Source of the DNA: Chloroflexota bacterium
GTDB lineage: Bacteria > Chloroflexota > UBA11872
Length of the DNA stretch: 64,000 bases
Reading direction: 5' to 3'
Assembly: GCA_965219705.1 (NCBI GenBank)
Contig: CBDCOK010000001.1
Coordinates: 259 to 64,258 of the forward strand
A model generated the notes under the pieces. It did not search any database, was not told where the DNA came from, and was given only the letters and a program-made list of their open reading frames with translations. The translations under genes were made by a program, and so were the position numbers. Positions 17,744-55,868 of the stretch are shown here, in pieces; the first letter of the stretch is position 1; each line of letters starts with the position of its first letter.

Positions 17744-19279
17744 TTAATCCAGCGTCCTCGACACGCGAAAACCGACGTCGGCGAGCCGGTAGGCGGCGCG
17801 GAGCCAGTCGCGCGCGCCAGGCCGGAGGGAGCTGTCGTACCACGAGCCGCCGCGCAGCACGCGATGGCCGCAGTTCCCCTCCCAGTTCCCCTCCCAGCAG
17901 TCCGACGTCCACTCCCACACGTTCCCAACCATGTCCGACAGCCCCGCCGCGTTCGCGCCGTGGCCGCCCACAGGGCACGTTCCATCAGGACGCGACCCCA
18001 GACCCAACCGGTCGCACCCGGGCTGAGAACCGGTCGCCGCTCGCGCCCACTCCGACTCCGTCGGCAACCGATAAGTCGCGCCTGTCGTCCGGCTCAGCCA
18101 CGACACATACGCCTGAACGTCGTCCCAGCTCACGCACGTCACAGGATGACGGTCCGTCTGCGGAAAGCCCGGGTTGCGCCACGAATCGCCATCGCCGAGC
18201 GTGGTGCAATCGCCGACAGCCCCAGACCCCGTCGCCGAGGCGAACGCACGATACTCCCCCACCGTCACCTCGTAACGGCCCAGCGCCAGAGCGCCGCCGG
18301 GAAGCACCACCATCTCCGGACAATCGTCGCAGTCACGGAACGCGTCCCCAGGACGATACCCAGGGTCCGAGACGCCACCGAACCCGGGCGAGCTCGCGCC
18401 GGAGACCCGGGAACCGGCTGCCGGAGAACCCGTCGCGCCCGACGGCCGACCGGACGCGCCCGCCGGAACACCCGGCGACGAACGAAGGGCCGACAGCCGA
18501 TTCTCGGCCAGACGGCGAAACACCCCGTTCGGGAACTGCTCGAGATACGCCTCGAAGTCGGCTGCGTCGCTGCTGTTCACCACCGACTGCCAGAACACCG
18601 TCTCCTGCTCCGCGCTCGCCGCAGGCGACGGCGGAGACGACGGCTGCTCACGCGCACCCGCCGCGGGCCGTTGCCGGAACGTCGTCTGGCCAGGCCCGGA
18701 AGACCGCAGCGCCGCCACCGACGAGCCATCCAGATAGCCCGTCGCGCGTGAACCCCGCGACGATTGCCAGCCCCGGATCGCGGCACGCGTACGCGGGCCG
18801 AACATCCCGTCCGCGCCACCCGGGTCGAACCCCGCCGACTGAAGCCCCCGCTGAACCTCCTGACGAGCCGCACGGTCCAGGCCAAGCCCCTCCTCGACCA
18901 CCGGGCCATTGCAGCCCCACACCCGAACGACGCACCCAGAACCGCCGCCTCGAGAGCTGCACGCCGACAGCGCCGCCTGCTGAGCCGCGGACGCCGAGCC
19001 ATACGATTCCGCCCAGCCCACCGCCGTGCTGTCCGAGTCCTGGTCCGCCGCATATGCCGCGCAACGCGCGAACGTCAGAACCACAGAGCAGTTCGAGCCG
19101 CACTCCGACAGCGCCCGCCGCTGCGCCGCGCCCGCCGTCTCGTAGTCCACCGCCCAGCCCCACTGGTCGCCCTGCCGCTCGTCGACCGCCAACGCGCCCA
19201 CCGGCTGCGCAAACGCTGCACCCGCCGAACTCAGCATCACCCAAACCACGAGCGAAGACCAACGGTGTGCCTGCATCAA
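17744..19279 (-). CDS. DGR target protein A: signal peptide, DUF4189-like Cys domain, peptidoglycan-binding domain, FGE-sulfatase (C-type-lectin-fold) domain with C-terminal VR
   Basis: 511 aa; MMQAHRWSSLVVWVMLSSAGAAFAQP; VGALAVDERQGDQWGWAVDYETAGAAQRRALSECGSNCSVVLTF...; GFDPGGADGMFGPRTRAAIRGWQ; ...HPVTCVSWDDVQAYVSWLS..ATYRLPTESEW...GNVWEWTSDCW...RVLRGGSWYDSSLRPGARDWLRAAYRLADVGFRVSRTLD. Confidence 0.85.
   Translation of the reverse strand: MMQAHRWSSLVVWVMLSSAGAAFAQPVGALAVDERQGDQWGWAVDYETAGAAQRRALSECGSNCSVVLTFARCAAYAADQDSDSTAVGWAESYGSASAAQQAALSACSSRGGGSGCVVRVWGCNGPVVEEGLGLDRAARQEVQRGLQSAGFDPGGADGMFGPRTRAAIRGWQSSRGSRATGYLDGSSVAALRSSGPGQTTFRQRPAAGAREQPSSPPSPAASAEQETVFWQSVVNSSDAADFEAYLEQFPNGVFRRLAENRLSALRSSPGVPAGASGRPSGATGSPAAGSRVSGASSPGFGGVSDPGYRPGDAFRDCDDCPEMVVLPGGALALGRYEVTVGEYRAFASATGSGAVGDCTTLGDGDSWRNPGFPQTDRHPVTCVSWDDVQAYVSWLSRTTGATYRLPTESEWARAATGSQPGCDRLGLGSRPDGTCPVGGHGANAAGLSDMVGNVWEWTSDCWEGNWEGNCGHRVLRGGSWYDSSLRPGARDWLRAAYRLADVGFRVSRTLD
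17747..17869 (-). repeat. DGR variable repeat VR-A (cognate to TR 15433-15562)
   Basis: Aligns with TR over ~125 nt. The ~24 differences at TR-adenine positions give AAC to TAC/GAC/AGC/CTC/GTC/GCC codons. There is a 6-nt indel, four other non-A changes (gcc-tcc, gtt-gtg, agc-agg, ctc-ctg) and an identical 3' GGTTTTCGCGT segment (IMH-like). Confidence 0.8.
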
Positions 19280-19362
19280 CCTTCTCCTTGGATCTTTGCC
19301 CTCGAGCTCGGAGAGGAACGTATCACAGGGCTCGGAAATAACCTGCCCGCGTCACAACCGCA

Positions 19363-19384
19363 GGTTATGGGATGGGCGGCGGGG
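19363..19384 (+). repeat. Direct repeat GGTTATGGGATGGGCGGCGGGG (left flank of DGR cassette)
   Basis: See 15219-15240. Confidence 0.5.
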
Positions 19385-19519
19385 CGGAAACACGACGACG
19401 GCCCGGCGCGGGCAAACCAGGCTGGCCGATCGGCGAGCGTCGTGACGGCCCGCTTGGAGCGCTCGCGCAGGTCCGCGGGCAGCACCGGCGGTCTGTGCGG
19501 CCCTCAGAGACCAGGATCC

Positions 19520-19586
19520 GGTGACTGTATTGGCGCAAACGCGTATCGGTATATATACTCATGTACTCAGAGTAATTTATGAGTAA
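19520..19586. promoter_or_regulatory. AT-rich region with ATATACTCA(T/C)(G/A)TACTCA repeats upstream of parA (candidate par operator/centromere); related copy at 20455-20480
   Basis: tatatactcatgtactcagagta before parA and catatactcacatactcaaaag after parG. It is AT-rich in a 68% GC context. Confidence 0.3.
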
Positions 19587-20225
19587 GTGATGATCATTTC
19601 GTTTCTAAACCAGAAAGGTGGCGTGGGGAAAACGACGCTTGCCCTCCACGTGGCCGTGGCGCTGCAGCTCCAGGGCCGGGGGCGTGGCCTTGTGGTCGAT
19701 GCGGATCCGCAGGGCTCCGCTCTCGACTGGCAGGCGCAGCGGGCCGAGCCTTCCCCCGTGCCGGTGGTCGGGATGCCGACGCCGACGCTACATCGCGACG
19801 CACGCGCGATCGCGGATACGGACTATCTGGTGATCGACGGGCCGCCGCGGATGGACGTGATCGCGAAATCGGCCATTGCGGCGAGCGACCTAGTGTGCAT
19901 TCCGGTCCAGCCGTCGCCGCTCGACGTGTGGGCGGCGGGCGAGATCTTCGATCTGGTCGAGGAGTGCCGGGTGCTGAAGCCGAGCTTGGCCGTCCGGTTC
20001 GTAATCAACCGGGCGGTTCAGGGGACGGTGCTGGCCGCGGAGGTCGCGGCGGCGCTCGAGAAGTTCAAGACGCCGGTGCTGCCGGTTGTGCGGAACCGCA
20101 CGGAGTACGCGAAGGCGATCCGGGCAGGGAAGACGGCGATGGAAACGCAGCCGCGCGGGCGGGCGGCCAGGGATATCGAGGTGCTGACTGACGCGGTGTG
20201 GAACGCGGCACGGGGGGAGCCATGA
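19587..20225 (+). CDS. parA: ParA-family partition ATPase
   Basis: MMIISFLNQKGGVGKTTLALHVAVAL... is a deviant Walker A (KGGVGKTT) in a ParA/MinD-fold protein of 212 aa. Confidence 0.85.
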   Translation: MMIISFLNQKGGVGKTTLALHVAVALQLQGRGRGLVVDADPQGSALDWQAQRAEPSPVPVVGMPTPTLHRDARAIADTDYLVIDGPPRMDVIAKSAIAASDLVCIPVQPSPLDVWAAGEIFDLVEECRVLKPSLAVRFVINRAVQGTVLAAEVAAALEKFKTPVLPVVRNRTEYAKAIRAGKTAMETQPRGRAARDIEVLTDAVWNAARGEP

Positions 20226-20446
20226 CGGACTGGGGCGCGAAGCCGCGACCGCGGTCGACGACGCATCTGCTGGATACGTTCGTGGGCTCGGCGGGGAAGC
20301 CGAAGCGGGGCGGGGAACACAAGCGGCTGAACGCGATGATTCCCGCTGCCCTGCACCAGCGAATGAAGGTAGCTTGTGCGAAGGCCGGAACGGACATGAC
20401 GACGGTCCTGATCGAGCTGCTCGAGAAGCGGTTTCCCGACGAGTGA
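20222..20446 (+). CDS. ParG-like ribbon-helix-helix partner protein
   Basis: Start overlaps the parA stop (ATGA). KRLNAMIPAALHQRMKVACAKAGTDMTTVLIELLEKRF is an RHH fold, like ParG/CopG. Confidence 0.5.
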   Translation: MTDWGAKPRPRSTTHLLDTFVGSAGKPKRGGEHKRLNAMIPAALHQRMKVACAKAGTDMTTVLIELLEKRFPDE

Positions 20447-20877
20447 ACATCAGCGCATATACTCACATACTCAAAAGAGAGGATGCCGCTGAACAGCTCC
20501 GCCTAGTGCGCCGTGGTTCCCCCTGCCTCGCTACCCCTCGCAGCACGACCGCCGTGTTCGGGCTCGCAGGGTCCGGCCACCCCGCGACCGGTAGCCCCCT
20601 GATGCCGGCGAATCGTCGATGCCGATCGGCCGTCCTCCTGCAACCTCGCTACCTACGTAATTCGCCAGTTCGCCCGTGTCACGGCGGAGGTTCGAGAAAT
20701 CGCCAGCACAGGGCCGCTGAGCGCGCCTAGCGGTCAAGTCTGAGCAGCCGGGGAGCGGCGAGCAACGGCGTGATATCCTGTGAACGTAGAAAACGCGTCC
20801 GTACAGACGAACACCCGGTGCTGCGAACACCGGGCGTCGAAGGTCGGCGGGCGCGCGGGCGATGAGGGCGCCCACGC

Positions 20878-24575: not shown

Positions 24576-24581
24576 CCCGAG

Positions 24582-25394: not shown

Positions 25395-25395
25395 G

Positions 25396-29891: not shown

Positions 29892-31460
29892 ATGCGGACC
29901 GTTGCCGACTCGATGCTGGTTCTGTGCGCGTTGGTGTGCACGGCGTCGGTGGCCTCGGCGCAGCCGCCGGTGGGTGCGCTGGCGATCGACGAGCGGCAGG
30001 GCGACCAGTATGGCTGGGCGGTGGACTACGAGACGGCGGGCGCCGCGCAGGCGCGGGCGCTCGGCGAGTGCGGCGCTGGTTGCCGGGTGGTGTTGACGTT
30101 CAACCGTTGCGCCGCCTACGCGGTAGATCAGGACGCGGACAGCACGGCGGTGGGCTGGGCGGAATCGTTCACGTCGTCGTCGTCGGCCCAGCAGGCGGCG
30201 CTGTCGGAATGCAGCTCACGGGGCGGTTCCGGTTGCGTCGTTCGGGTGTGGGGCTGCAACGGCCCGGTGGTCGAGGAGGCTCTGGGGCTCGACCGCGGGG
30301 CGCGTCAGCAGATTCAGCGGGGCCTGCAGTCGGCGGGCTTCGACCCGGGCGGTGCGGACGGCTTGTTCGGTCCGCGCACGCGCGCAGCGATTCGGCGCTG
30401 GCAGACGTCCCGTGGTTCTCGCGCGACGGGCTATCTGGATGGCGCGTCGGTGGCGGCGCTGCGACCGTCGGCACCGGGTCAGCCGACGTTCCGCCAGCGG
30501 GAGGCGGTCGGTGCGGACACGGCTGCGGCACCTGCCGTCTCCGCGCCGCCGCCGCCAGCGGCCTCCGCCGAGCTCGAGGGGCTGTTCTGGCAGTCGGTCA
30601 TGAACAGCACGAACCCGTCGGAGTTCGAGGCGTATCTGCGGCGGTTCCCGAACGGGCTGTTCAGCGAGCTGGCCGAGGCCCGTCTGGCGGCGCTGCGCGC
30701 GCCGGCGGGCGGGCCGCCGGGTGCGGCAGGGGCGGCGGTCGGCGGCGCCAGGCCGACCTCGGGTTCGCGGGCCTCCGGGGCGACGGCGCCGGCATCCGGG
30801 TCGCGGGTCGGCGCCGGGCCCGGGCGGGGCTTCGGTGCGGCGGCCGGCGCGGACGCTCGTCCCCGGCCGGGCGCGGTGTTCCGGGACTGCGACGTGTGCC
30901 CGGAGATGGTGGTGATGCCGGACGGCCGCCTGGCACTGGGCCGCTACGAGGTGACGGTGGGCGAGTATGGGGCGTTCGCGGCGGCGACGGGGGGCGGCGC
31001 GGGCGCCGGATGCATCACCGTTGGCGATGGCGATTCGTGGCGGGACCCCGGCTTTCCGCAGACGGATCGTCATCCTGTGACGTGCGTGAGCTGGGACGAC
31101 GCGCAGGCGTACGTGTCGTGGCTGAGCGGGCAGGCGGGGGCGACGTATCGGTTGCCGACGGAGACGGAATGGGACCGGGCGGCCGCGGGGTCCCAGCGCG
31201 GGTGCGACTATGGGCGGACGGACATCTTTGGCACGTGCCCGGTGGGCTCCTATGGGGCGAACGGCGCGGGTCTGTTCGGCATGGTCGGGAACTTGTGGGA
31301 ATGGACGCAGGACTGCTGGGAGGACTGTGGCCGCCGCGTGCTGCGCGGCGGCTCCTGGGACTTCGGCGCGGAGTTCCAGCGGCCCGGCGCGCGCTACTGG
31401 GACACCGCCGGCGGCCGGAGCGGCAACGTCGGTTTCCGTGTCGCGAGGACGCCGGATTAG
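29892..31460 (+). CDS. DGR-target paralogue B (same architecture as A); C-terminal VR at ~31329-31454
   Basis: MRTVADSMLVLCALVCTASVASAQPPVGALAIDERQGDQYGWAVDYETAGAAQ... ; ends RVLRGGSWDFGAEFQRPGARYWDTAGGRSGNVGFRVARTPD. Confidence 0.85.
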   Translation: MRTVADSMLVLCALVCTASVASAQPPVGALAIDERQGDQYGWAVDYETAGAAQARALGECGAGCRVVLTFNRCAAYAVDQDADSTAVGWAESFTSSSSAQQAALSECSSRGGSGCVVRVWGCNGPVVEEALGLDRGARQQIQRGLQSAGFDPGGADGLFGPRTRAAIRRWQTSRGSRATGYLDGASVAALRPSAPGQPTFRQREAVGADTAAAPAVSAPPPPAASAELEGLFWQSVMNSTNPSEFEAYLRRFPNGLFSELAEARLAALRAPAGGPPGAAGAAVGGARPTSGSRASGATAPASGSRVGAGPGRGFGAAAGADARPRPGAVFRDCDVCPEMVVMPDGRLALGRYEVTVGEYGAFAAATGGGAGAGCITVGDGDSWRDPGFPQTDRHPVTCVSWDDAQAYVSWLSGQAGATYRLPTETEWDRAAAGSQRGCDYGRTDIFGTCPVGSYGANGAGLFGMVGNLWEWTQDCWEDCGRRVLRGGSWDFGAEFQRPGARYWDTAGGRSGNVGFRVARTPD

Positions 31461-31707
31461 GTCTTGATTCTTTTCTTCTTTTAGTTCTTGGGGGGTCTGG
31501 GGGGCTGCGCCCCATAAGCGCTAACTTGTGTGGATCACATGGTTCTCGGGCAGCTCAGTCCAGCCGAAGTACGCGGAGAGTTGCGGTTGTCGGCGACGTG
31601 GCGGCTCCGCCAGCTCGCGGGAGATCGTTCGCCAGTCACTGATCAGGCGCGCCAGCGGGAGCGACGGTTCGATGGTGCGCGCGACCTGGTTGAGTACGAA
31701 CTTGAAG

Positions 31708-32067
31708 TCACGCCACGGGCTGCGGGGGCGCCGGCGCCGGCACGTCGTAGCCCCAGGGGGAAATCGCGCGGGCGTGGTGGATCAGCTTCTCCACCAACAG
31801 CGCCACGAACAGTTTCCCGTAGAGCCACGCCTTGGCGCTGTCGTCGTCGTACTTCGGCACGTGCCCCAACTGGGCCAGCGACTTGAAGCGCTTGAACACC
31901 AATTCGACCTGCCAGCGCAGGCGATACCACTCCAGCACGTCCGCGGCGGAAAAGGGCGGCTCGGGAAAGGTTGTCAAGACGATCACGTACTCGGCAAACC
32001 GCAGGGTGGCCGGTTGCACCTGCTTGCCTTTGCGGCTAGCGGCGCGACGGATCTTCTTGTGCGCCAA
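31708..32067 (-). pseudogene. IS4/IS5-superfamily DDE transposase C-terminal fragment
   Basis: ...VLEWYRLRWQVELVFKRFKSLAQLGHVPKYDDDSAKAWLYGKLFVALL is a typical DDE_Tnp_1 C-terminus. Confidence 0.45.
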
Positions 32068-32211
32068 GCGGATGGCTTCGGCCGACTTGATCTCGCTGAA
32101 CAGGCGGTGTTCGATGGGGGTTCCACTTCGACGTGGCGGGCGGGTAGTGGGCCACCCTCACCCGCAAGCCGTGTCGGTTGCAGAGGCGATGTTGCAGGTT
32201 CGGGTACCGAC

Positions 32212-33660
32212 AACATTCGTGTTGTGATACACGCTAAGGGCTACGCCTCGTGAGCTTGGCGGGGTCGATCTTGATCTCGCCGTAGAGGATGACGTTCTTC
32301 CACTCGATCGGGCTGACATGCCGCAGTAGGTCGGGGTCGAACGGGAAGTCGGGCGCGGCGGCCAGCCGTGAGATCTCCCGGGCCTGCCAGTAGACGATGC
32401 AGGCGAGAATCAGGGTCAGGCACGAGCACGCGTTCATCTGGTCGTAGACCTCTCGGGCGCTGATGCGCCCTCGCTGCCCGTAGTAGACGGCCCGCGCCAG
32501 GGCGTGGAGCTGCTCGACCTTGAGCAGGCCCCGCCGCACCTTCGCCCGCAGTTGCGGCTCGGACATGTACTGCAGCACGAACTCGGTCTTCAGCGCGCGG
32601 CCGAGCTCGCGGTTGGCGGCGTAGAAGCGGTTCGAGGCCTGGAAGCGGTTGAGCCTCTGCAGGGCGGCCGATGCCGTGGCGTGCCCGGCGGGGAAAGCCG
32701 CGTAGAACTGGCCGATGCGGTCCCACTGCTCGGCGATGAGGCGGAAGTTCACCGCCCGCCGGCCACGCTGGGAGGACCGGCTCGAGGACGCCGTGGTCGC
32801 GGGCCGGGTCGGCGCAGTAGATCCGCTGGCGGTGCAGGCTGCGAATGCGGGGGCAGAACCGCATGCCGATCATCACGAAGGCGGCGAAGTTGATCTCGGT
32901 GTAGCCGTGGGTGTCGGTGTAGTGCTCTTCGAGGTCGAGGTCGCTCTCGTGGTAGAGCACGCCGTCGAGCACGAAGGGCGCGTCGCGGTCGGTGCACTCG
33001 ATCGGGCGGCTGTAGAACGGGGCGTAGTTGTCGGCGACGAACGAGTAGAACTCGAGCGCGAAGTCGTTGAAGCGGGTGCTGTAGGTCCGCTGCAGAACCT
33101 TGTGCGGCATGGCGAAGCGCTGCCCGTCGCTGGCCGACGTCGTGCCGTCGCCCCAATGGCCGGCGGCGTCGAGGCGGGAGATGCCATGGACGATGGTGGC
33201 GAGCGCGGCGCGCTGGTTCTCCTCGACGAGACGCCAATCGCTGACGTGCTTGAGCCGCCTGTAGGCGATGTCGGGCGCGACCTTCTCCATGGTGTAGAGG
33301 CCGAGGTTGCAGCCGTGGGCGAGGATCGCGGCGAGCAGCGCGCACACCTCCCCGGGGTCGACCCGCTTCTCGCCGGGCTGCTGGGAAGTGGACGCTGAAC
33401 CCGAGGTCGTTCTCGACCTCGATGAGTAGGTCGGCGAGCCGGATCGTGCGGCTGCGGGCGTCCAGCCAGCGGTGCAGCTCGGCGAGGCGGTCCGATTGCG
33501 CCGGGTCGGGCTGCTCGGCCGGGTCCGTCTTGAGCCGCCCCCGTCGTCGTCGAACGCGACCTGCCGGTTGTCAGCGACACCCTCCATTTCGGTGGAGGTG
33601 TCCACCGACTCGTCGGCGGCGCTCGCGGCCGGCACCGGCACGGGAACCGCCACTGACGTG
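32212..33660 (-). mobile_element. tnpA: Truncated copy of the Tn3-family transposon (inverted repeat + tnpA C-terminal ~470 codons, frameshifted near 32760); cut by the ISL3-derived remnant
   Basis: Inverted repeat GGGTACCGACAACATTCGTGTTGTGATACACGCTAAGGG at 32212-32250 matches 51412-51450. The protein is ~97% identical to residues ~590-971 of TnpA at 51444-54359. The reading frame switches between ORFs 32241-33653 and 32234-32752. Confidence 0.7.
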
Positions 33661-39351: not shown

Positions 39352-41286
39352 TCACGGCCGGTAACCGGACGGGCACTGACAGGGCCGACCGCCGCGAGCC
39401 CCAAGCGCATCGAGCCCGTCGCACGCCGCGTTGATCTCCTGGTGGCGGGCGTTGATCTGCTCGGGCGTCGATGACGTGCCGGCGCCTAGCGCGCACCAGG
39501 CACCAGCGGCCTGCAGCGCGAAGGCCCGGCGCTGAAAGTCGACGCCTGACCCGCACCAGCTCAGCCCCAGACTCCGCACGTTGGCCGGACGCGGATAGCC
39601 AGGAATCTCGCACGCCCGCCGCTGGCGTTGCGGCTGCGGCGGTGGCTCCGCCGCTGCGGCTGGCTGTCGGCGGTCCGGCCGGGTCGGCGTCTGACGTCGT
39701 GATTCCTGTCTCGACTCGTTGAATCGCGGGTCGTAGCGCGCGTCGTTCATCCGCCAGTAGGGCTCGGAGTCCTTCAGGACTTCGTTCTCTTGCGCGTAAT
39801 CCCACGGCGTCCGCCCCGCATCATCTGGAGCCAACGGGTCGGCCCCGGCTGCCAGCAACGGCTCGATCACGGCCGGATTCTTCTCGTTGTACCGCGCGGC
39901 ATGGTGCAACGGCGTGGAGCCGGACCGGGTGCGCGCCACGGGGTTGGCCCCGGCGCCGAGCAGCGCCTCGAGCACGGCCGGATTCTCGTTGTTCTGAGCG
40001 GCGAGATGCAGGAGCGTCCGGCCGTCGCTCGCCCGCCACGCACGGTTCGCTCCTGCCGCTAGCAGGGCTTCAAGCACGGCGACATTCTCGTTGCCCCACG
40101 CTGCCAAACTCAGAGGAGTGTCGCCGCCCTCAATGCTGACCTCTATATTGGCGCCGGCCGCCAACAGAAACTCGATCACAGCCGGACTCTCGGTGTTGCG
40201 AGCGGCGACATGCAGGGGCGTCCAGCCGCGGTCGGACCGGGCGTCGATGTCCGCCCCGGCCGCCAGCAGAAACTCGAGGACGGCCGGATTCTCGTTGTTT
40301 CTAGCGGCGTAATGCAGGAGAGTCAGGCCGTCAGTCGTTTGCATGTCTAGATTGCCGCCGGCGTCCAGAAGCACCTCAAGAATGGCTAGGTTCGAGCTAT
40401 TGGTGGCTGCCTCATGCAGCGGCGTGTGACCGTCACCGTCAGTCCGTGCCAGCATGTCGGCCCCAGCGGCGAGCAGAGCTTCGAGCACGGCTGCGTTCTC
40501 GTTTCTCCAGGCCGCCATGTGCAAGGGTGTGTGGCCGATGTCGTCCTGCGCCTCGATGTTTGCCCCAGCCGCCAGCAACGCCTCGAGAACGGCCGGATTC
40601 TCGTTGTTCTGAGCGGCGTGGTGCAGGGCCGTACTCTCACTGCCGTTGCGTGCTTCCAGGTTCGCCCCGGCCACCAGCAGAGCCTCGATCACGGTTGGGG
40701 CCTTGCTGCTCCAAGCCGCCCAGTGCAGCGGCGTGGTGCGGTCATCGTCGCGCGCCGCCACGTCCGCGCCGCCAGCAAGGCAGGCCTTTGCGTCCTCCGC
40801 GGTCGCCATCTCGAAGAACTCCTGCGTGTTCCAATCCTCGCAACTCACCGCCTGGACCGGAGCAGGTGACTCGGTGGCGGCCGGCGGCGCAGCGGGTGAC
40901 TCCGCGACCGGCGGCACATCGGTTGCGGCGACCTCGGACTCCGCAGGCCGCGGTTCGCCGGCCACGCGGAGCAGTTCGGCCTGCAGGCCGTCCAGATACC
41001 CGGTCGTTGGCATTCCCCGCGCCGCCTGCCAGCGACGAATCGCCTCGCGACTCCGCGGGCCGAACAACCCGTCCGGCGCGCCCGCGTCGAAGCCCTCGCT
41101 GCGCAGCCCCTGCTGAATTAGTCGACGCGCGGGTCGATCGAGACCCAGCGACGCTTCGACAGCCGCCGGATCCTGCGCGGCCGTGGCCACCGTCATCCGG
41201 AACGCCGCTCCCGGAGGCGGTACCAGAACCGCTGCCGAGACGACGAACGCCAGCAACAGAACGACGGCGAGCCACTCATGGCGCAT
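39352..41286 (-). CDS. Ankyrin-repeat protein with N-terminal signal peptide and peptidoglycan-binding domain
   Basis: MRHEWLAVVLLLAFVVSAAVL; GFDAGAPDGLFGPRSREAIRRWQAARGMPTTGYLDG (PG_binding_1); then ~12 ankyrin repeats (TPLHxAAxxxxxxVVEALLAAGAN); Cys-rich C-terminus. Confidence 0.8.
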   Translation of the reverse strand: MRHEWLAVVLLLAFVVSAAVLVPPPGAAFRMTVATAAQDPAAVEASLGLDRPARRLIQQGLRSEGFDAGAPDGLFGPRSREAIRRWQAARGMPTTGYLDGLQAELLRVAGEPRPAESEVAATDVPPVAESPAAPPAATESPAPVQAVSCEDWNTQEFFEMATAEDAKACLAGGADVAARDDDRTTPLHWAAWSSKAPTVIEALLVAGANLEARNGSESTALHHAAQNNENPAVLEALLAAGANIEAQDDIGHTPLHMAAWRNENAAVLEALLAAGADMLARTDGDGHTPLHEAATNSSNLAILEVLLDAGGNLDMQTTDGLTLLHYAARNNENPAVLEFLLAAGADIDARSDRGWTPLHVAARNTESPAVIEFLLAAGANIEVSIEGGDTPLSLAAWGNENVAVLEALLAAGANRAWRASDGRTLLHLAAQNNENPAVLEALLGAGANPVARTRSGSTPLHHAARYNEKNPAVIEPLLAAGADPLAPDDAGRTPWDYAQENEVLKDSEPYWRMNDARYDPRFNESRQESRRQTPTRPDRRQPAAAAEPPPQPQRQRRACEIPGYPRPANVRSLGLSWCGSGVDFQRRAFALQAAGAWCALGAGTSSTPEQINARHQEINAACDGLDALGARGGRPCQCPSGYRP

Positions 41287-41607
41287 CGCTGCCTCCCAAG
41301 TGCAGGAGATCAGATTCCCTGCTTCATCGACAGGGGAGTTTAGATGGCAAGAAGCATATCGTGGATTGCATTACGCACATGACATAGCTCATCCCGCCTC
41401 GGCAGTGGGCTCCTGCTGGCCAGCACGGCGTGCGGATCATCGGGACCCTCCTCGGTTGTCCTTGCATCCAACCGTCGGCCGCGCGACGGGGCCCCGGCAC
41501 GACCGAACTGCTCGGATCGCATCTCTTCCATCTCCCTGCCGGCGAACCCTACCCGCGCCGCCCGACAGCTGCGCCGTCGGCACCGGCGCCAGTCAGTACG
41601 GCCAACT

Positions 41608-42594
41608 CTAGATCACGATGCGCTCGATCTCGTCGACGGTGATCGTGTCCGCCGTCCGGTCGTAGAGCTTCGTCGTCTTCGGCGAGGCGTGCCCGGCGAT
41701 CCGCTGCGCGTGATCGAGCGTCCCCCCGTTCGACAGATACGCCGTGATCCCCGTCGCCCGGAACGTGTGGCAGCAGGTCGACGGCGGCAGATCCGCCGCC
41801 GCCGCCCGCCGCTTGATCATCGCCAGGACGAGACGCCGCGACAGCGCCCGCCCCGTCAGATGCCACCCCGCGGGGTCGAGGCTCTGGAAGAGCGGCGCCT
41901 TCGCCTCGCCCGGCCCGGCCGCCGCGAGATAGTCGTCGAGCGCCTCGGCCGCCCGATGGTGCGCCGGGACGTCGTGGCGCTTGCCGCCCTTCTCGTGCAG
42001 CCTGAGCCAACCCCGGCTCTCCTGCCGGAAGTAGTCCTGCCGCCGCATCGCGATGACCGCACTCACCCGCGCGAAGCTGTAGAGCATCACCGAGACGAGC
42101 GCCCGGTCGCGCCGGCCCGCGAGGGTAGTCGTGTCGATCGCCTCGAGCAGCCGGCGGGCCTCGGCCGGCGACACCGCCGGCGTCGCGCCCTTGGTGACGA
42201 CGTGCTTCGGTCCCCGAACCGCCGCGGCCGGGTTCACCGGGAGGACCTGGCTGACGACGAGCCAGTCGCCGAGCATGCGGATCGCGGCCAGGTGCTGTTT
42301 GACCGTCGGCGCCGACCCGGGGTGCGTCCGGATGTAGGCCGCCACGTGCAGCGGCGAGACCGCCTCGAGGGCCAGCCCGCGCGCCTCGCACCACGCCAGA
42401 AACTGCCCCACCGCCCGCCCGTACGCCGCCCGCGTGCGCCGGTTGGCGATCCGCGCCGCGAAGAACTCGAGAAACTTCCCCACCGCCGCCGGCCCCGCGT
42501 CGACGACGAGCCGCGGCAGCAGGGGGCCGCCCCGCCCGGCGGCCGCCGGGCGCAGGGCGCCCGCCCGCTCGACCAGCGCCACGTCTTCGCTCAT
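41608..42594 (-). CDS. Tyrosine recombinase/integrase, intact copy (329 aa from the ATG at 42594)
   Basis: MSEDVALVER...core-binding domain...RDRALVSVMLYSFARVSAV (R)...GWLRLHEKGGKRHDVPAHH (H-x-x-R region)...HTFRATGITAYLSNGG...GHASPKTTKLYDRT (catalytic Y). Fragments of the same gene recur at 5648, 10860, 13744 and 14366. Confidence 0.8.
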   Translation of the reverse strand: MSEDVALVERAGALRPAAAGRGGPLLPRLVVDAGPAAVGKFLEFFAARIANRRTRAAYGRAVGQFLAWCEARGLALEAVSPLHVAAYIRTHPGSAPTVKQHLAAIRMLGDWLVVSQVLPVNPAAAVRGPKHVVTKGATPAVSPAEARRLLEAIDTTTLAGRRDRALVSVMLYSFARVSAVIAMRRQDYFRQESRGWLRLHEKGGKRHDVPAHHRAAEALDDYLAAAGPGEAKAPLFQSLDPAGWHLTGRALSRRLVLAMIKRRAAAADLPPSTCCHTFRATGITAYLSNGGTLDHAQRIAGHASPKTTKLYDRTADTITVDEIERIVI

Positions 42595-42987
42595 CCCGTC
42601 ACCTCTCCCCCGCCGCCGGCCGCCTCCTTCCCCGCCGGCGAGCGCCTCGAACCGTTCGTAGTCGCTGACGAGCGCCTGGGCCAGCGCGTAGAGTCGTCCG
42701 ACGGCGTCCTTCGCCCCGCTGAAGCGCACCTCGATCCGGTCCGCCTCGACCGTCACCCCGTCGGGCAGTCCCGACAGGCGCGCATCGAGCGCCTCGACCG
42801 GCACGGCCACGCGGATCCCGGTCAGCCGCGCCCGGCGGATCTCGGTGACCACCTTCTCGCGCCGCGTCTCCTCGCGGCGGAAGGCGGCGCGCTTGCGGTG
42901 CCTCCGAAGCTGCCGCAGGAGCTCGGCCCGCGGCAGCGTCAGCAGGTGCCCGGTCCGGTGGGCGCCGAAGGCCGTCATCAGCTGCAC
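42595..42987 (-). CDS. Integrase-associated HTH protein (N-terminus truncated by the Tn3 inverted repeat; in-frame with the integrase, no intervening stop)
   Basis: ...LFGVSKVRAVQLMTAFGAHRTGHLLTLPRAELLRQLRRHRKRAAF... is homologous to 14564-15190. Homology ends at 43016 where the Tn3-type inverted repeat begins. Confidence 0.4.
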
Positions 42988-43078
42988 GGCGCGGACCTTC
43001 GAGACGCCGAAGAGCGGGTCGTTTGCGGGAGGGGGCGAGATCCTACGCTAAGCCCACCCGGCGGCGCGGATCTCGGGT

Positions 43079-43690
43079 TCAGGCCCCGAGGACCTTCCGG
43101 CCCTGCTCCCGCAACTGGCCCTGTGGGCCGACGTACCGGTAGAGCGTCACCGGCCTGATGCCGAGTTCGCGGCACAGCTCCGACACCGACGTGTCGCGGT
43201 GCGCCATCGCGGACTGGGCCAGCCTCACCTGGGCTTTCGAGAGCGCGAACTTCCTGCCGCCCTTGCGTCCGCGAGCCCGCGACACCTTGAGCCCGGCCAC
43301 GGTGCGTTCGCGGATCAGCTCCCGCTCGAACTCGGCCAGCGCCGCGAAGATGCCGAACACGAGGCGGCCGGCCGCGGTCGTGGTGTCGACCGGCGCGCCC
43401 TGGCCGGCGAGCACCCGCAGGCCCACGCCGCGTGCCGACAGGTCCTGCACGGTGTTGACCAGGTGGGCGAGGTTGCGGCCGAGGCGGTCGAGCTTCCAGA
43501 CGACGAGCACGTCGCCCTTGCGCAGGGCGCGCAAGCAGCTGTCGAGTCCCGGCCGGTCGTCGCGGACGCCGGACGCGAAGCCGTGGTACAGGTTGACGGC
43601 GTCGACGCCCTCGGCCCGCAGGGCGTCGCGCTGCAGGTCGAGCGACTGGGAGCCGTCGGTCTTCGAGACGCGGGCGTAGCCGATCAGCAT
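43079..43690 (-). CDS. tnpR: Serine recombinase (resolvase, TnpR)
   Basis: MLIGYARVSKTDGSQSLDLQRDAL... gives the catalytic Ser in YARVS. Helix-turn-helix C-terminus. 203 aa from the ATG at 43690. Confidence 0.8.
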   Translation of the reverse strand: MLIGYARVSKTDGSQSLDLQRDALRAEGVDAVNLYHGFASGVRDDRPGLDSCLRALRKGDVLVVWKLDRLGRNLAHLVNTVQDLSARGVGLRVLAGQGAPVDTTTAAGRLVFGIFAALAEFERELIRERTVAGLKVSRARGRKGGRKFALSKAQVRLAQSAMAHRDTSVSELCRELGIRPVTLYRYVGPQGQLREQGRKVLGA

Positions 43691-44934: not shown

Positions 44935-46611
44935 ATGCGGACCGTTGCCGACTCGATGCTGGTTCTCTGCGCGTTGGTGTGCACGGCGTCGGTAGCCTCG
45001 GCGCAGACGCCGGTGGGGGCGCTGGCGACCGACGAAGGTGAGCAGTGGGGCTGGGCGGTGGACTACGAGACGGCGGGCGCCGCGCAGGCGCGGGCGCTCA
45101 GCGAGTGCGGCGGTGGTTGCCGGGTGGTGTTGACGTTCAACCGTTGCGCCGCCTACGCCGCGGACCAGGACGCGGCCAGCACGGCGGTGGGCTGGGCGGA
45201 ATCGTACGGCTCGGCGGCTGCGGCTCAGCAGGCGGCGCTGACTGAGTGCAGCTTGCGGGGCGGCTCTGGCTGCATCGTTCGGGTGTGGGGCTGCAACGGC
45301 CCGGTGGTCGAGGAGGGGTTGAGCCTCGACCGTGCGGCGCGTCGTCAGGTTCAGGAGGGCCTGCAGGCCGCCGGCTTCGACCCGGGCGGCGTGGACGGGA
45401 TGTTCGGTCCGCGGACGCGGGCGGCGATCCGGGGTTGGCAGTCGTCGCGGGGTGCGCGGCCGACGGGGTATCTGGACGGTCCGGGGGTCGAGGCGCTGCG
45501 GTCGGCCGGCGGTTCCGGTCCGGCGACGGGAGCCGCGTCCCCGGCGCCCGTGGCACGGCAGCCGGCGTCCACCGCTGCGCTGTCCGCGCCGCCCGCGGCC
45601 GGCGCGGAACTGGAGGGCCTGTTCTGGCAGTCCATCATGAACAGCGCGAACCCGGCGGAGTTCGAGGCGTATCTCGCGCAGTTCCCGAACGGGGTGTTCC
45701 GGGCCCTGGCCGAGGCCCGCCTGGCGGCGCTGCGCGCGCCGGCGGGTACTCCGTCCGGGGCGGCCGGGTCGCGAGTCGACGGCGCGGGGTCGCCGGCTGT
45801 CCGGTCACCGGTCCCGGGCGGGCGGGTCGCCGGAGCTCCCGCTCCAGCCGCCGGGATTGCCGCGGGCGACGCTGCGCGTCCGCGGCCGGGCGACGTGTTC
45901 CGGGACTGCGACGCCTGCCCGGAGCTGGTGGTGGTACCGGCGGGCCGGTTCCGGATGGGCTGCGTCTCCGGCACGGGCTGCCGGGACAGCGAGCTGCCGG
46001 TGCACGAGGTGGCGGTGGCGTCGTTCGCGCTGGGCGTGCACGAGGTGACGTTCGCGGAGTACGAACGCTTCGCCGCGGCGACGGGCCGTGACCGGCCGAA
46101 CGATCGAGGTTGGGGCGGGGGCGCCCGTCCGGTGATCAACGTGTCGTGGGAGGACGCGGCGGCCTACGCGGACTGGCTGTCCGGCGAGACGGGCGCGCGG
46201 TATCGGTTGCCGAGCGAGTCGGAGTGGGAGTATGCGGCGCGGGCCGGCGCCGAGACGGCGCACGCCTGGGGGAACGACATCGGCTTTCGCGAAGTCTGCA
46301 ACTGGGCGAACTACTATGGCTGCAGAGACGAGACGGAGCCGGTGGGCTCGTTAGCGGCGAACGGGTGGGGCCTGCACGACATGCACGGCAACGTGTTGGA
46401 GTGGGTGGCGGACTGCTGGCATCGCAGCTACGCGGGTGCACCGCGCGATGGCTCGGCGTGGACGAGCGGCGGTTGCGGTGCTCGTACATTGCGGGGCGGT
46501 TCCTGGAGGAACGGTAGTCTGGACAGTCTCCGCTCGGCCCACCGCGACACAGCCCCTGCCGGGCACCGGTTAGACACCTTCGGTTTTCGCGTGGCGAGGA
46601 CGCTGCGTTGA
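44935..46611 (+). CDS. DGR-target paralogue D (more canonical FGE-sulfatase/SUMF1-like domain); VR-like C-terminus ~46488-46608
   Basis: Same N-terminal architecture. C-terminus ...HGNVLEWVADCW...GARTLRGGSWRNGSLDSLRSAHRDTAPAGHRLDTFGFRVARTLR. The 3' end GGTTTTCGCGTGGCGAGGACGCTG resembles the VR-A 3' end. Confidence 0.8.
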   Translation: MRTVADSMLVLCALVCTASVASAQTPVGALATDEGEQWGWAVDYETAGAAQARALSECGGGCRVVLTFNRCAAYAADQDAASTAVGWAESYGSAAAAQQAALTECSLRGGSGCIVRVWGCNGPVVEEGLSLDRAARRQVQEGLQAAGFDPGGVDGMFGPRTRAAIRGWQSSRGARPTGYLDGPGVEALRSAGGSGPATGAASPAPVARQPASTAALSAPPAAGAELEGLFWQSIMNSANPAEFEAYLAQFPNGVFRALAEARLAALRAPAGTPSGAAGSRVDGAGSPAVRSPVPGGRVAGAPAPAAGIAAGDAARPRPGDVFRDCDACPELVVVPAGRFRMGCVSGTGCRDSELPVHEVAVASFALGVHEVTFAEYERFAAATGRDRPNDRGWGGGARPVINVSWEDAAAYADWLSGETGARYRLPSESEWEYAARAGAETAHAWGNDIGFREVCNWANYYGCRDETEPVGSLAANGWGLHDMHGNVLEWVADCWHRSYAGAPRDGSAWTSGGCGARTLRGGSWRNGSLDSLRSAHRDTAPAGHRLDTFGFRVARTLR

Positions 46612-49481: not shown

Positions 49482-49613
49482 CTCGACCAGCCGCTCCAGC
49501 ACGTCGAGCGCCGTCACCTGCAGCCGGTCGCCCAGCAGGAACTTCTGCCGCTGCGGGAACTTCTCCACCGTCGGCACCAGCCACCCCCAGGAGGAAGAGA
49601 ACAGAAGAATCAA
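49482..49613 (-). pseudogene. avd: Avd gene 5' fragment (remnant of a second DGR cassette next to target C)
   Basis: WLVPTVEKFPQRQKFLLGDRLQVTALDVLERLVE is ~90% identical to Avd at 17285-17602. Homology ends after ~44 codons. Confidence 0.55.
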
Positions 49614-49616
49614 GAC

Positions 49617-51173
49617 CTAATCAAGCGTCCTCGCGACACGGAAACCGAAGTCGGTGACCCGGCCGCGGACGTGGTCCCAGAAGCGCGCGCCGGGCCGCTC
49701 CGCGACGTCGTACCAGGAGCCGCCGCGCAGCACGCGATGGACGCAGTCGCCCTCCCAGCAGTCCTCCGTCCATTCCGACAGGTTCCCGACCATGTCGAAC
49801 AGGCCCGCGCCGTTCGCACCGTACGAGCCGACCGGGCACGTGCTAAGGTTCCCAGTCCGCTCACGGTCGCAGCCGCGCTGGGAACCCGCCGCCGCCCGGT
49901 CCCATTCCGCCTCGGTCGGCAAGCGATAAGTCGCCCCGGCCGTCCGGCTCAGCCACGACACATACGCCTGCGCGTCGTCCCAGCTCACGCACGTCACAGG
50001 ATGACGGTCCGTCTGCGGAAAGCCCGGGTCCCGCCGCGAATCGCCGCCAAAGGTGAGGCATCCGCCGCCCGCACCGCCGCCCGTCGCCGACGTGAACGCC
50101 CCATACTCGCCCACCGTCACCTCGTAGCGGCCCAGCGCGAGACGGCCGTCCGGCATCACCACCATCTCCGGGCACACCTCGCAGTCCCGGAACACCGCGC
50201 CCGGCTGCGGACGCGCGTCCGCGCCGGCCGCAGGCCCGCCGACCCGCGACCCGGACGCCGCCGCGGAGGCGCCGGAGACGCGCGAACCCGAAGCCGCGGT
50301 CCCGGCGCCGCCGCCGCGCGCCCCTGCCGCGCCGGACGCCCCGCCCGCCGGCGCGCCCAGCGCTGTCAGCCGGGCCTCGGCCAGCTCGCTGAACAGCCCG
50401 TTCGGGAACCGCCGCAGATACGCCTCGAACTCCGATGGGTTCGTGCTGTTCATGATTGACTGCCAGAACAGGCCCTCGAGCTCGGCAGAGGCGGCCGGCG
50501 CGGCCGCTGGCGGTGGCTGCGGCGGCGGCGCGGAGACGGCAGGCGGCGCAGCCGCGGCGGCGGCGGCCGGCTCCCGCTGGCGGAACGTCGGCTGACCCGG
50601 TGCCGACGGCCGCAGCGCCGCCGCCGACGGCCCATCCAGATAGCCCGTTGCGCGAGAACCCCGAGACGTCTGCCAGCGCCGAATCGCTGCGCGCGTGCGC
50701 GGACCGAACAAGCCGTCCGCACCGCCCGGGTCGAAGCCCGCCGACTGCAGGCCCCGCTGAATCTGCTGACGCGCCCCACGGTCGAGGCCCAGACCCTCCT
50801 CGACCACCGGGCCGTTGCAGCCCCACACCCGAACGAGGCATCCTGTGCCGCCACGCGAGCTGCACTCAGTCAGCGCACGCTGGCGGGCGCCGGCCGGCGA
50901 GGAGTACGACTCCCCCCAACCCACCGCCGTGCTGTCCGCGTCCTGGTCCGCCGCGTACGCGGCGCAGCGCTCGAACGTCAGCACCACCGAGCAGCCCGAG
51001 CCGCACTCCGACAGCACCCGCTGGCGAGCGGCCGCCGCCGTCTCGTAGTCGACTGCCCACCCCCACCGGTCGCCCTGGCGTTCGTCGACCGCCAGCGCAC
51101 CCACCGGCGGCTGCGCCGCGGGCGCCGACGCCATCCGCAGCAACACCCAGAAGACGAGCGCCAATCGGACCAT
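49617..51173 (-). CDS. DGR-target paralogue C (full length); VR at ~49623-49739
   Basis: MVRLALVFWVLLRMASAPAAQPPVGALAVDERQGDRWGWAVDYETAAAARQ... ; ends RVLRGGSWYDVAERPGARFWDHVRGRVTDFGFRVARTLD. Confidence 0.85.
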   Translation of the reverse strand: MVRLALVFWVLLRMASAPAAQPPVGALAVDERQGDRWGWAVDYETAAAARQRVLSECGSGCSVVLTFERCAAYAADQDADSTAVGWGESYSSPAGARQRALTECSSRGGTGCLVRVWGCNGPVVEEGLGLDRGARQQIQRGLQSAGFDPGGADGLFGPRTRAAIRRWQTSRGSRATGYLDGPSAAALRPSAPGQPTFRQREPAAAAAAAPPAVSAPPPQPPPAAAPAASAELEGLFWQSIMNSTNPSEFEAYLRRFPNGLFSELAEARLTALGAPAGGASGAAGARGGGAGTAASGSRVSGASAAASGSRVGGPAAGADARPQPGAVFRDCEVCPEMVVMPDGRLALGRYEVTVGEYGAFTSATGGGAGGGCLTFGGDSRRDPGFPQTDRHPVTCVSWDDAQAYVSWLSRTAGATYRLPTEAEWDRAAAGSQRGCDRERTGNLSTCPVGSYGANGAGLFDMVGNLSEWTEDCWEGDCVHRVLRGGSWYDVAERPGARFWDHVRGRVTDFGFRVARTLD

Positions 51174-51443
51174 CGGGAACCTCCTCGAAGTCGTTGCACC
51201 CCCGCCGGCCCGCGCGCCAGGCCCGCCACGACGGCTGCCGCGATCCTATCGCCGGTGTCCGTTGCAGCAAACCGCGAGTTGTCCTGCTCCGCCGGTCCTT
51301 GTTGGCAATCTTCTGAAACCGCGGTGTATGTTCCAGCTGGACATACAACGCGGTGGACTAAACCGCTACGGCGGTAGACGCTCAGTCGACCCGCCGGCAC
51401 TGCCGCGTCCAGGGTACCGACACCATTCGTGTTGTGATACACG

Positions 51444-54359: not shown

Positions 54360-54478
54360 GGCTCTGTCCGAGATAAACGGGCGTTCTGACCGAACAGTTC
54401 AGCAGCAGGGAACATGACGCGTTCCATGTCCCGCATCTGTCAGATACAATACGCGCAGCTGCATTCCATGGACAGGCC

Positions 54479-55093
54479 GTGAAGACCGTCGCCTATCTGC
54501 GCGTCTCGACCCCGCAGCAGGACGTGAGCAGCCAGCGCCTCGCCATCCTGGAGTACGCGCGGGAGCACGACCTCCACATCGACGACTTCATCGAGGCGAC
54601 TGCCTCCGGACAGGCGTCCGAGAAGCGCCGCCGGCTCGACGAGCTGACGAACGCCCTGCAGCACGGCGACCGTCTGGTCGTCAGCGAACTCTCCCGGCTC
54701 GGCCGGTCGCTGGGTCAGGTCGTCGCCGTGCTCGACGCCCTCGCCAAGGCGGGCGTCGCCTTCGTGGCCCTGAAGGAGAACATCCGCGTCGAGGGCAAGC
54801 GCGACATCCAGACCAAGGTCATGACCACGCTCTTCGCGCTGTTCGCCGAGGTCGAGCGCGACCTGATCTCCGAGCGCACCCGCGAGGGCCTCGCCAAGGC
54901 CAGGGCCTCGGGCCGCAAGCTCGGGCGCCCGAAGGGATCGCTGGGCGTCTCACGGCTTGACGGCAAGGAGGACGAGATCCGGCGCTTCCTCGAGCTGGGC
55001 GTCTCGAAGACCGCCATCGCCAAGATCACCGGCGTGTCCCGGACCGCGCTCTACAGCTTCATGACCACCAGAGGGCTCAGGCCGAGCCGTTAG
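54479..55093 (+). CDS. tnpR: Serine recombinase/resolvase TnpR
   Basis: MKTVAYLRVSTPQQDVSSQ... gives the catalytic Ser in YLRVS. 204 aa with a C-terminal HTH (GVSKTAIAKITGVSRTALY). The stop lies inside the right inverted repeat. Confidence 0.85.
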   Translation: MKTVAYLRVSTPQQDVSSQRLAILEYAREHDLHIDDFIEATASGQASEKRRRLDELTNALQHGDRLVVSELSRLGRSLGQVVAVLDALAKAGVAFVALKENIRVEGKRDIQTKVMTTLFALFAEVERDLISERTREGLAKARASGRKLGRPKGSLGVSRLDGKEDEIRRFLELGVSKTAIAKITGVSRTALYSFMTTRGLRPSR

Positions 55094-55344
55094 CGTGTAT
55101 CAGAGCACGAATGGTGTCGGTACCCTTGAGGAGAACGAGGACCGCCGCGTCGAGCTCGAAACCCACCGGAGGCCGACGGCTCGAGGCACTCTCGACCACG
55201 TCGCCGACTGCACGAGGCGGACGCTGACGCACCCGCCATCCGGACGGGCCGGTCAGCGCCGTGCGATAGATGGCCCCCGACGCACCTGAGGCATGTCCGG
55301 GCGGCGCAACGCCGGATCGAGTCGGCCGCCTCGGCGGGTTCGGG

Positions 55345-55576
55345 CAATGAATCCTGGTGTTTTCGGCCGCTGGGGCGGGGCAACGCCAAGTTAACGTAGT
55401 GGGCGTTATCAGACGCCGGCCTGGGGCGGCTAGGCTGCGGAACAACTCGCGGCAATACTCCTCGAGGACGTATCGAACGATGTCCGCGGCGGGCTCGATG
55501 CGCCATGCCAACCTGAGTCCCCGCATCGGCCTTCCCCGTGGTAGGTTGGCTCTTCTCAGCAAAGGAGCAGAACACC
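55345..55576 (+). promoter_or_regulatory. Conserved leader of DGR-target paralogues (copy E)
   Basis: See 29646-29891. Confidence 0.5.
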
Positions 55577-55868
55577 ATGCGGACCGTTGCCGACTCGATG
55601 CTCGTTCTCTGCGCGCTGGTGTGCACGGCGTCGGTAGCCTCGGCGCAGCCGCCGGTGGGCGCGCTGGCGGTCGACGAGCGGCAGGGCGACCAGTATGGCT
55701 GGGCGGTGGACTACGAGACGGCGGGCGCGGCGCAGGCGCTCAGCGAGTGCGGCGCTGGTTGCCGGGTGGTGTTGACGTTCAACCGTTGCGCCGCGTATGC
55801 GGCGGACCAGGACGCGGACAGCACGGCGGTGGGCTGGGCGGAATCGTTCACGTCGTCGTCTGCAGGGC
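55577..55868 (+). pseudogene. DGR-target paralogue E, 5' fragment only (~97 codons)
   Basis: MRTVADSMLVLCALVCTASVASAQPPVGALAVDERQGDQYGWAVDYETAGAAQALSECGAGCRVVLTFNRCAAYAADQDADSTAVGWAESFTSSS, then unrelated sequence. The motif GGTTATGGGACGCC follows at 55974. Confidence 0.7.

Follow-up and report, generated by a model that had tools for sequence, protein, structure and literature searches.

A diversity-generating retroelement on a plasmid-like Chloroflexota replicon: one structurally complete cassette, and paralogous targets probably written by a second template lineage

Diversity-generating retroelements (DGRs) that serve several targets are already known, as are degenerate variable repeats (VRs). 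In the prototype, that of Bordetella phage BPP-1 (mtd, avd, template repeat [TR], brt), the TR lies between avd and the reverse transcriptase (RT) gene and the target is a phage tail fibre. Multi-target DGRs with remote targets have been documented in a survey of DGRs (PMC5758913), among them that of Treponema denticola, in which several FGE-sulfatase-type VR targets lie kilobases from the RT (Wu et al. 2018, PMC5758913). The DGR of Trichodesmium erythraeum IMS101 has 12 VRs, four of which carry non-adenine changes and were read as no longer targeted (Pfreundt et al. 2014, PMC4143802); the sequenced strain carries a disrupted RT, a wild relative an intact one (PMC4143802). In this study, we analyzed a stretch of 64,000 nt from a Chloroflexota contig (CBDCOK010000001.1, positions 259 to 64,258; hereafter the window), which covers nearly all of a 64.3-kb plasmid-like replicon and carries one DGR cassette, five paralogous genes of the target type termed A to E, and a group II intron inside the DGR RT gene (Table 1). 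The cassette beside gene A is structurally complete and has recently been active. We consider it likely that the VRs of genes B and C were written by a second template, TR2, whose cassettes have since been lost here, and that the resident template, TR1, does not serve them.

The locus shares with BPP-1 adenine-specific differences between TR and VR, an Avd protein, an RT with an IGxxxSQ motif, a VR at the 3' end of a gene for a C-type-lectin-like fold, and a GC-rich hairpin just 3' of the VR. It differs from BPP-1 in the position of the TR, which follows the RT, and in its target, a plasmid-borne gene for a secreted protein with DUF4189 and peptidoglycan-binding domains; the intron in the RT gene and the additional paralogues without a template are found only here. 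With Trichodesmium it has in common a single RT/TR locus, many VR genes, some VRs with non-adenine changes, and an interrupted RT that is intact in a close relative. In Trichodesmium, however, all VRs go back to one TR and a stop codon breaks the RT, whereas here B and C would go back to a second TR lineage, their own cassettes persist as stubs, and what interrupts the RT is an intron that could splice out. The present case is of the Trichodesmium kind, beyond which it has a second TR lineage and recognizable cassette stubs. Like the remote-target DGRs, it has several FGE-sulfatase-type VR genes kilobases from the RT. The survey that described those systems assigned a remote target only if its differences from the TR were of the A-to-N kind (PMC5758913), and by that rule B, C and D would not be assigned to the resident TR.

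Cassette A reads, along the minus strand, gene A, hairpin, avd, RT and TR1. In the body of the repeat VR-A departs from TR1 at 17 of 23 adenines and at none of the 67 non-adenines, and it carries one 6-nt deletion. The Avd scores 101.6 bits against the NCBIfam model DivGenRetAVD (cut-off 80). Joining the two RT exons gives a 361-aa protein (17304-15568; RVT_1, 4e-19) that contains PIGNLTSQ and reads RYVDD-F-ALFADD across the junction (junction peptide RYVDDFALFADD). This RT has thousands of homologues, several of which are encoded beside Avd genes and TRs; in NCBIfam, where no DGR-RT model exists, its best match was group_II_RT_mat, below the cut-off. The cassette is structurally complete, with an adenine-type TR/VR pair, an RT next to the TR, an Avd, and a VR that forms the last ~40 codons of an FGE-sulfatase domain (PF03781, 2.5e-38). 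In such a cassette, reverse transcription of TR1 RNA would introduce errors at adenines, and the resulting cDNA would replace VR-A (mutagenic homing). Scans of the window for AAC-rich stretches and for the GGSW...GFR motif returned one TR each, and no second one.

Comparison with an orthologous cassette shows that the A-type DGR has been active recently. The ortholog, 96.8% identical over 2156 nt, lies on another plasmid-like contig (L125) that carries RepA_C and ParA. Its TR differs from TR1 at 3 positions, and its VR differs from its own TR at 16 of 23 adenines and at 0 of 73 other bases, with no gap. Gene A and its L125 ortholog show 58 differences, 42 of them within the last ~170 nt. Because the VRs of two cassettes of 97% identity differ completely, and at TR adenines only, the A-type DGR has rewritten its VR after the two plasmids split. 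Cassette A may still be diversified at present. Relative to L125 the window copy has four changes of its own: besides the intron and the 6 nt deleted from VR-A, these are two duplications, one of 11 nt in the hairpin and one of 12 nt just upstream of the VR. The hairpin after A, a putative target-recognition element, has a GC stem of 9-10 bp and a loop of 14 nt, compared with loops of 3-4 nt in relatives; the 11-nt duplication enlarged the loop from the 3 nt seen in L125. Hairpins with a GC stem of 7-10 bp and a loop of 3-4 nt are kept in L125, L126, L001, L122, L123, L247 and L248. Homing in the Bordetella phage DGR requires such a hairpin. The intron-split RT, the duplication in the loop and a VR-A 6 nt shorter than its TR would all be damage within cassette A.

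The VRs of B and C do not have this relationship to TR1. In the body of the repeat, VR-B differs from TR1 at 8 of 72 non-adenines and VR-C at 8 of 68, the latter with a 6-nt gap placed elsewhere than that of VR-A, and each has a further 6-7 non-adenine differences among the 22 positions of the 3' end; neither, then, differs from the resident TR by A-to-N changes only. Homing from TR1 would erase such differences, and so TR1 did not write B or C. When B and C are compared with each other, differences in the VR body fall 8/7/0 at codon positions 1/2/3, against 51/39/98 in the rest of the gene (Fisher 4e-5), and they affect 10 of 24 positions where TR1 has an adenine and 5 of 87 others (Fisher 6e-5). 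The 37 aligned TR-homologous codons hold no third-position differences, compared with 20% elsewhere in the genes (P ~2e-4), which indicates that both VRs were copied from the same or a near-identical template after the genes had diverged. A candidate for that template comes from contig L001, which resembles a conjugative plasmid and on which the nearest relatives of B lie as two paralogues in tandem, followed by an avd stub, a C-terminal RT stub and a truncated TR. The non-adenine states of this TR are those common to B and C (TCC, GCG, CAG CGG, CCC, GGC), and we refer to sequence of this type, TCCTGGAACAACAACGCGGAGAACCAGCGGCCCGGCGCGCGC, as TR2. Measured against the L001 remnant, VR-B has changes at 12 of 17 adenines and 2 of 67 other bases, both in one codon, and VR-C at 10 of 14 adenines and 3 of 64 others; B and C thereby bear the marks of DGR-diversified VRs, with variation at codon positions of template adenines. 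On sequence grounds, the non-adenine differences of VR-B and VR-C from TR1 reflect a second TR lineage, TR2.

These results bear directly on the first-pass annotation, made from the letters of the window alone. It had described a TR beside only one paralogue, a VR-A that equals that TR apart from adenine sites and one indel, several non-adenine differences in VR-B and VR-C, and VR lengths that differ by 6 nt, and all of this is borne out by the counts above, the length difference being that VR-C is 6 nt shorter than TR1 and VR-B of the same length. It had also named variation spread evenly along the genes as the pattern that would refute its reading, and we found variation concentrated at TR adenines (the B-C contrast of 10/24 and 5/87). 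For the non-adenine differences it had offered either additional TRs elsewhere or older diversification followed by drift. The former agrees with the second TR lineage seen in the L001 remnant; drift is ruled out by zero third-position changes in 37 codons against 20% elsewhere. Its view that diversification in trans by the resident RT and TR is less likely gains support from the eight non-adenine differences that separate each of the two VRs from TR1.

Around the other paralogues we found what is left of cassettes. A remnant of avd lies directly 3' of C, and no hairpin was found between the two by DNA folding; it has been deleted, and the sequence runs straight into the remnant. After B, the conserved post-VR sequence extends through the 5' arm and loop of the hairpin and breaks in the 3' arm, beyond which lie fragments of insertion sequences (IS) and of Tn3 (31708-33653). 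Transposon debris borders the remnants of both B and C. Only the first ~35 nt past the stop codon are shared by D, followed by a gene for a DDE transposase, with no hairpin. An intact hairpin within the window is therefore found after A only; that of B is truncated in its 3' arm and that of C deleted. Similar losses are seen in relatives, most of which, among those examined, have no intact cassette. No DGR RT, avd or TR lies within 8 kb in L122 or L124 (the sole RT of L124 is distant, at 26% identity). L123 and L248 are left with avd stubs; L247, which also has an IS110 element, retains a frameshifted avd and a 64-aa stub of the RT; and in L126 the RT is truncated inside the intron. This distribution indicates that decay of the cassette with retention of the target gene is recurrent in the lineage. 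A conserved post-TR tail (GGATGAGCGCGGCGGCGTCAC...) follows both tandem paralogues of L001 (L001:16513-16596 and L001:12170-12230), from which it appears that each once had a complete cassette and that differing deletions took differing parts.

The explanation that we regard as probable is that TR2 wrote VR-B and VR-C. It rests on the non-adenine states that the two VRs share, on B-C differences that fall at codon positions 1 and 2 only, and on the TR2-type remnant of L001. Deletion and transposon insertion would then have destroyed the cassettes of B and C, leaving the avd stub after C and the half hairpin after B, and VR-B and VR-C would be frozen products of past diversification. The anatomy of the locus, the mismatch statistics, the remnants and the ortholog comparison are direct observations; that B and C are no longer diversified we infer. 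Several points weigh against this explanation. The search for TR2 covered the window, and an intact TR2 with an RT may exist elsewhere in the source genome; ~298 nt of the contig also lie outside the window. The hairpin requirement comes from a Bordetella phage and may not hold for the present clade. Orphan relatives such as L122 keep an intact hairpin, so that action in trans may occur in this lineage. B, C and D are intact open reading frames (ORFs) and hence are not simply decaying. Finally, 2-3 non-adenine differences still separate VR-B and VR-C from the sole TR2-type sequence available, which is itself truncated.

Some of these points would fit a second intact DGR on another replicon, or a second TR used by the resident RT, that still diversifies B, C or both. 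The TR-homologous stretches of B and C are homogenized, with no third-position difference in their 37 codons; TR2-type templates do exist in nature; and orphan family members with intact hairpins are common in relatives. Against this, only half of the hairpin is left after B and none of it after C, whose own cassette was lost on the spot, as the avd stub shows; the 6-nt difference in length means that at least one of the two VRs has not been rewritten since that indel; and the close relatives of B and C that we examined all have no intact RT. We judge ongoing diversification of this kind to be unlikely. Far less probable still is action in trans of the resident avd, RT and TR1 on B and C and possibly D, which would make this a single DGR with several targets at a distance. 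Other DGRs do have remote and multiple targets (PMC5758913, PMC4143802), and VR-B has the length of TR1. Homing would, however, copy every non-adenine base of TR1, and VR-B and VR-C each retain 8 such differences in the body, besides 6-7 at the 3' end. VR-C is moreover too short by 6 nt; B is followed by a truncated hairpin and C and D by none; and D, which has 25 codons where TR1 has 24, is of a different VR class. Ordinary divergence of paralogues or positive selection, with no DGR involved for B, C or D, has in its favor that the paralogues have diverged along their whole length (76-85% nucleotide identity), but it hardly accounts for differences that sit at TR adenine positions (Fisher 6e-5 to 3e-3), for third codon positions wholly spared in the VR between B and C, for more than 100 family members that vary at the same positions, or for the cassette remnants that flank B and C. 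Equally hard to credit is an assembly artifact, a contig joined chimerically across repeats, for although the contig is repeat-rich (100% identical ISL3 copies, Tn3 pieces of 95-97% identity), the paralogues are 15-25% diverged with distinct flanks, which collapsed or duplicated reads would not be, and tandem paralogues also occur on related contigs from other samples.

The locus as a whole presents cassettes that duplicate, TR lineages that diverge, RT and TR sequences that are lost to transposons and deletions, and targets that would be kept as frozen variants. Scans that count VR-like paralogues as remote targets would over-call loci of this type.

All five ORFs of the family are present where the first-pass annotation had placed them, and the VR peptides and conserved flanks (RGGSW... 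and GFRVARTL) that it quoted are exact. The architecture that it ascribed to all of them is found in A to D, which match DUF4189, PG_binding_1 and FGE-sulfatase in Pfam, but not in E, which matches DUF4189 only. In the same way, the hypervariable C-terminal VR holds for A, B and C, in a different manner for D, and not for E, a truncated 5' fragment with no C-terminus and hence no VR. E breaks off at the start of a repeat shared with 43015-43123, beside a resolvase gene. A hydrophobic N-terminal leader ending in AxA can be read from the sequence of all five. Nucleotide identity is ~76% between A and B and ~85% between B and C, with substantial divergence outside the VR as well. The exact protein A is present in the public protein collection (P0001), and proteins A and B are both recorded there from a contig of 64,298 nt, of which the window is essentially the whole; the 90% clusters of A and B are singletons and hold no natural VR variants or information on microdiversity.

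Paralogue D requires a separate account. Its N-terminal half and upstream region resemble B (82-96% identity), while its FGE-sulfatase domain is of a different class, full-length, and matches the whole Pfam model (2-255/255). The VR-like stretch of D spans 25 codons, compared with 24 in TR1; several of its variable codons do not end in C; and against A, B or C it shows no codon-position bias (p > 0.08). The whole-model match and the lack of bias indicate that D is not a VR of the same TR family, and we found no cognate TR for it in the window. The earlier placing of D in one VR family with the others holds in part. Homologs of the D-type domain vary at the same positions (RGGSWxxxPxxLRSAxRxxxxAGxRxxxxGFRVARTL), and a genome contig, L058, carries a D-type VR, a hairpin, avd, an RT 67-70% identical to that of the window, and a TR encoding NNNPRNLRSANRNRNNPDNRNNND. 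L058, like L062, is among the matches listed in a scan of genome contigs with CGCGTGCTGCGCGGCGGCTCNTGG, a generic pattern that encodes RVLRGGSW in any high-GC genome. We considered that D might be an ordinary FGE-sulfatase outside any DGR and dropped this idea in view of the hypervariable homologs and the D-type TR of L058. D is plausibly the product of a third template class that is absent from the window, and it may be a recombinant with another FGE/VR class.

The intron is a separate and more unusual point: it would be a retroelement that parasitizes the catalytic box of other retroelements' RT genes. Two Rfam models match it above their gathering cut-offs, RF01999 (domains I-IV) with 108 bits and RF00029 (domains V-VI) with 56 bits, and its excision (16598-15948) restores the 361-aa RT ORF. 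An uninterrupted public protein, P0241, is 99% identical to the spliced RT over the full 361 aa (100% of its length). P0241 is encoded on L125, whose sequence follows that of the window as far as 16599 and takes it up again at 15947, and the boundaries of the intron are exactly fixed by this intron-less allele. Both exon-binding sites (EBS) of the intron find partners in the exon, EBS2 (GCGUAG) in CUACGU and EBS1 (AGUCGU), by way of two G-U wobbles, in ACGAUU. That the RT was instead interrupted by an inactivating IS, or had shifted frame, is countered by the Rfam matches, the precise ends and the intron-less allele. There is no ORF in the 651-nt intron, and no homolog of an intron-encoded RT/maturase is encoded in the window; splicing would need a maturase supplied in trans.

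The same intron, ~97% identical over 600 nt, occupies the same YVDD site of a different DGR RT in L126 (L126:6706-~7330). In that DGR, RT exon 1 is 84% identical and the target is a kinase with PG_binding_1 and FGE-sulfatase domains; its intron copy keeps the N-terminus of the intron-encoded protein, a maturase N-terminus like VVWEAYTRVKANQGAAGVD. The 5' end of the intron is present in JGI metagenomes in at least 121 copies (loci L127-L246 included), at least 118 of which have enough upstream sequence for comparison and show at least 90 distinct upstream sequences. Among the 121 matches listed, 44 copies follow RYADD and 27 follow RFADD, giving 71 after R[YF]ADD. Where host ORFs can be read, they encode RTs of the kind carried by group II introns, among them members of the intron's own protein family. 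We dropped the notion of an intron specific to DGR RTs, as most JGI copies among the matches listed sit in intron-encoded RTs. Together with the copies in DGR RTs, the JGI copies after R[YF]ADD indicate a lineage that homes to YxDD-coding DNA of RT genes, with DGR RTs as an additional host. We offer only tentatively, and with more doubt than confidence, the fuller proposal that this lineage is specialized in YxDD-coding DNA and has crossed from intron-encoded to DGR RTs at least twice, so that the DGR would need a maturase encoded elsewhere; if true, one retroelement would gate the hypermutation of another. Introns that home into ORFs of other introns are known (PMC4424553, PMC2882425), such as the nested group II introns of Methanosarcina acetivorans (Dai and Zimmerly 2003, as cited in PMC4424553) and the twintrons of Thermosynechococcus elongatus (PMC2882425). 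In contrast to those, the site here is the YxDD catalytic box of RT genes, and two hosts are DGR RTs rather than intron-encoded proteins, a situation that we did not find described in any paper. Nor did we find a report in the literature of an intron in a DGR RT. About 20 intron copies among the matches listed (L127, L130, L143, L145, L166, L207, L213, L217, L226, L236 and others) follow sequences like GGAATTGAACCGTCGACC, which resemble the reverse complement of a tRNA T-arm and may be a second class of insertion site.

The proteins to which A to D belong form an undescribed family of DGR targets, with DUF4189, a peptidoglycan-binding domain and a variable lectin-like tip. More than 1,400 metagenome proteins have the same three-domain architecture. 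The consensus of the tip is RGGSWxxxAExLRPGARxxxxAGxRxxxxGFRVSRTLD, in which the variable positions coincide with the AAC codons of the TR. One member occurs in a Vicinamibacterales metagenome-assembled genome, on which the taxonomic placing of the family rests, and a protein search of PLSDB found no close relatives. Family members often lie on plasmid-like or conjugative contigs; in the closest relatives (L001:1-5855) they adjoin genes for TrbL, VirB8, TraG and VirB11. The DUF4189 domain of A and its paralogues has six conserved cysteines. A DUF4189 protein is reported to bind VirB5 and to block type IV secretion between kin (2026 preprint, bioRxiv 10.64898/2026.05.09.723464). This offers a testable lead to function, and as a lead only, it could hint at an exclusion-like role for the variable proteins.

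Table 1. Features of the DGR locus and of its remnants, in window coordinates
Feature	Position	Strand	Description
IS4-like transposase inside tyrosine-recombinase gene	11782-13632		
Template repeat TR1	15434..15552	-	Body 15457-15528 encodes NNNAENLQPGARNRNRAANRNDNN; 10 AAC codons in 90 nt
DGR RT exon 2	15568..15947	-	F-ALFADD... to stop
Group II intron, ORF-less, 651 nt	15948..16598	-	Splits RT directly after YVDD codons; starts GTGCG
DGR RT exon 1	16599..17304	-	Ends ...RYVDD plus 1 nt; IGNLTSQ motif
avd, accessory variability determinant, 126 aa	17285..17665	-	Pfam bAvd 7e-17
GC-rich hairpin, putative target-recognition element	17674..17705	-	41 nt past stop of A; DNA fold
Target gene A	17744..19276	-	Signal peptide, DUF4189, PG_binding_1, FGE-sulfatase; sole paralogue with cassette
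VR-A, TR-homologous stretch	17751..17863	-	Variable body 17774-17839
Small tandem duplication, 12 nt (EGNW-EGNC)	17870-17895	-	Just upstream of VR-A; absent from L125
Paralogue B	29892..31460	+	Pfam; VR-B 31335-31452, body 31359-31430
Target-hairpin remnant after B	31497..31513	+	5' arm and loop kept, 3' arm cut
Paralogue D	44935..46611	+	Pfam; VR-like stretch 46507-46581
avd remnant directly 3' of C	49482..49582	-	101 nt, 91% identical to mid-avd at 17483-17585
Paralogue C	49617..51173	-	Pfam; VR-C 49625-49736, body 49647-49712
Fragment E	55577..55863	+	Signal peptide, most of DUF4189; ~96 codons

The replicon looks like a mobilizable plasmid, with genes for ParA, a MobA/MobL relaxase and a RepB primase. 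Elements of three kinds (ISL3, IS4-like and Tn3-family) have rearranged it heavily. Present are three identical copies of ISL3, IS4-like elements and several pieces of Tn3 transposase (95-97% mutual identity), along with a resolvase and a pair of integrase copies, of which an IS interrupts one. The ISL3-family copies (1635-3226, 6519-8103 and 8460-10052; two direct, one inverted) share 99.7-100% identity, a sign of very recent transposition or else a possible source of misassembly. A tyrosine-recombinase gene (10844-11655 and 14365-14986) adjoins the TR end of cassette A and is broken by an IS4-like element, and an intact copy, 88-89% identical to the split one, lies near paralogue D (41567-43014). 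The same gene is found 3' of the L125 TR, which indicates that the cassette travels with an integrase. Elsewhere on the minus strand (39352-41286), the replicon encodes a 644-aa protein with a PG_binding_1 module followed by nine ankyrin repeats (DNA repeats of 102-105 nt). The PG_binding_1 DNA of this gene is ~71% identical to that of the paralogues, and the peptidoglycan-binding module seems to have been shuffled among genes of the replicon.

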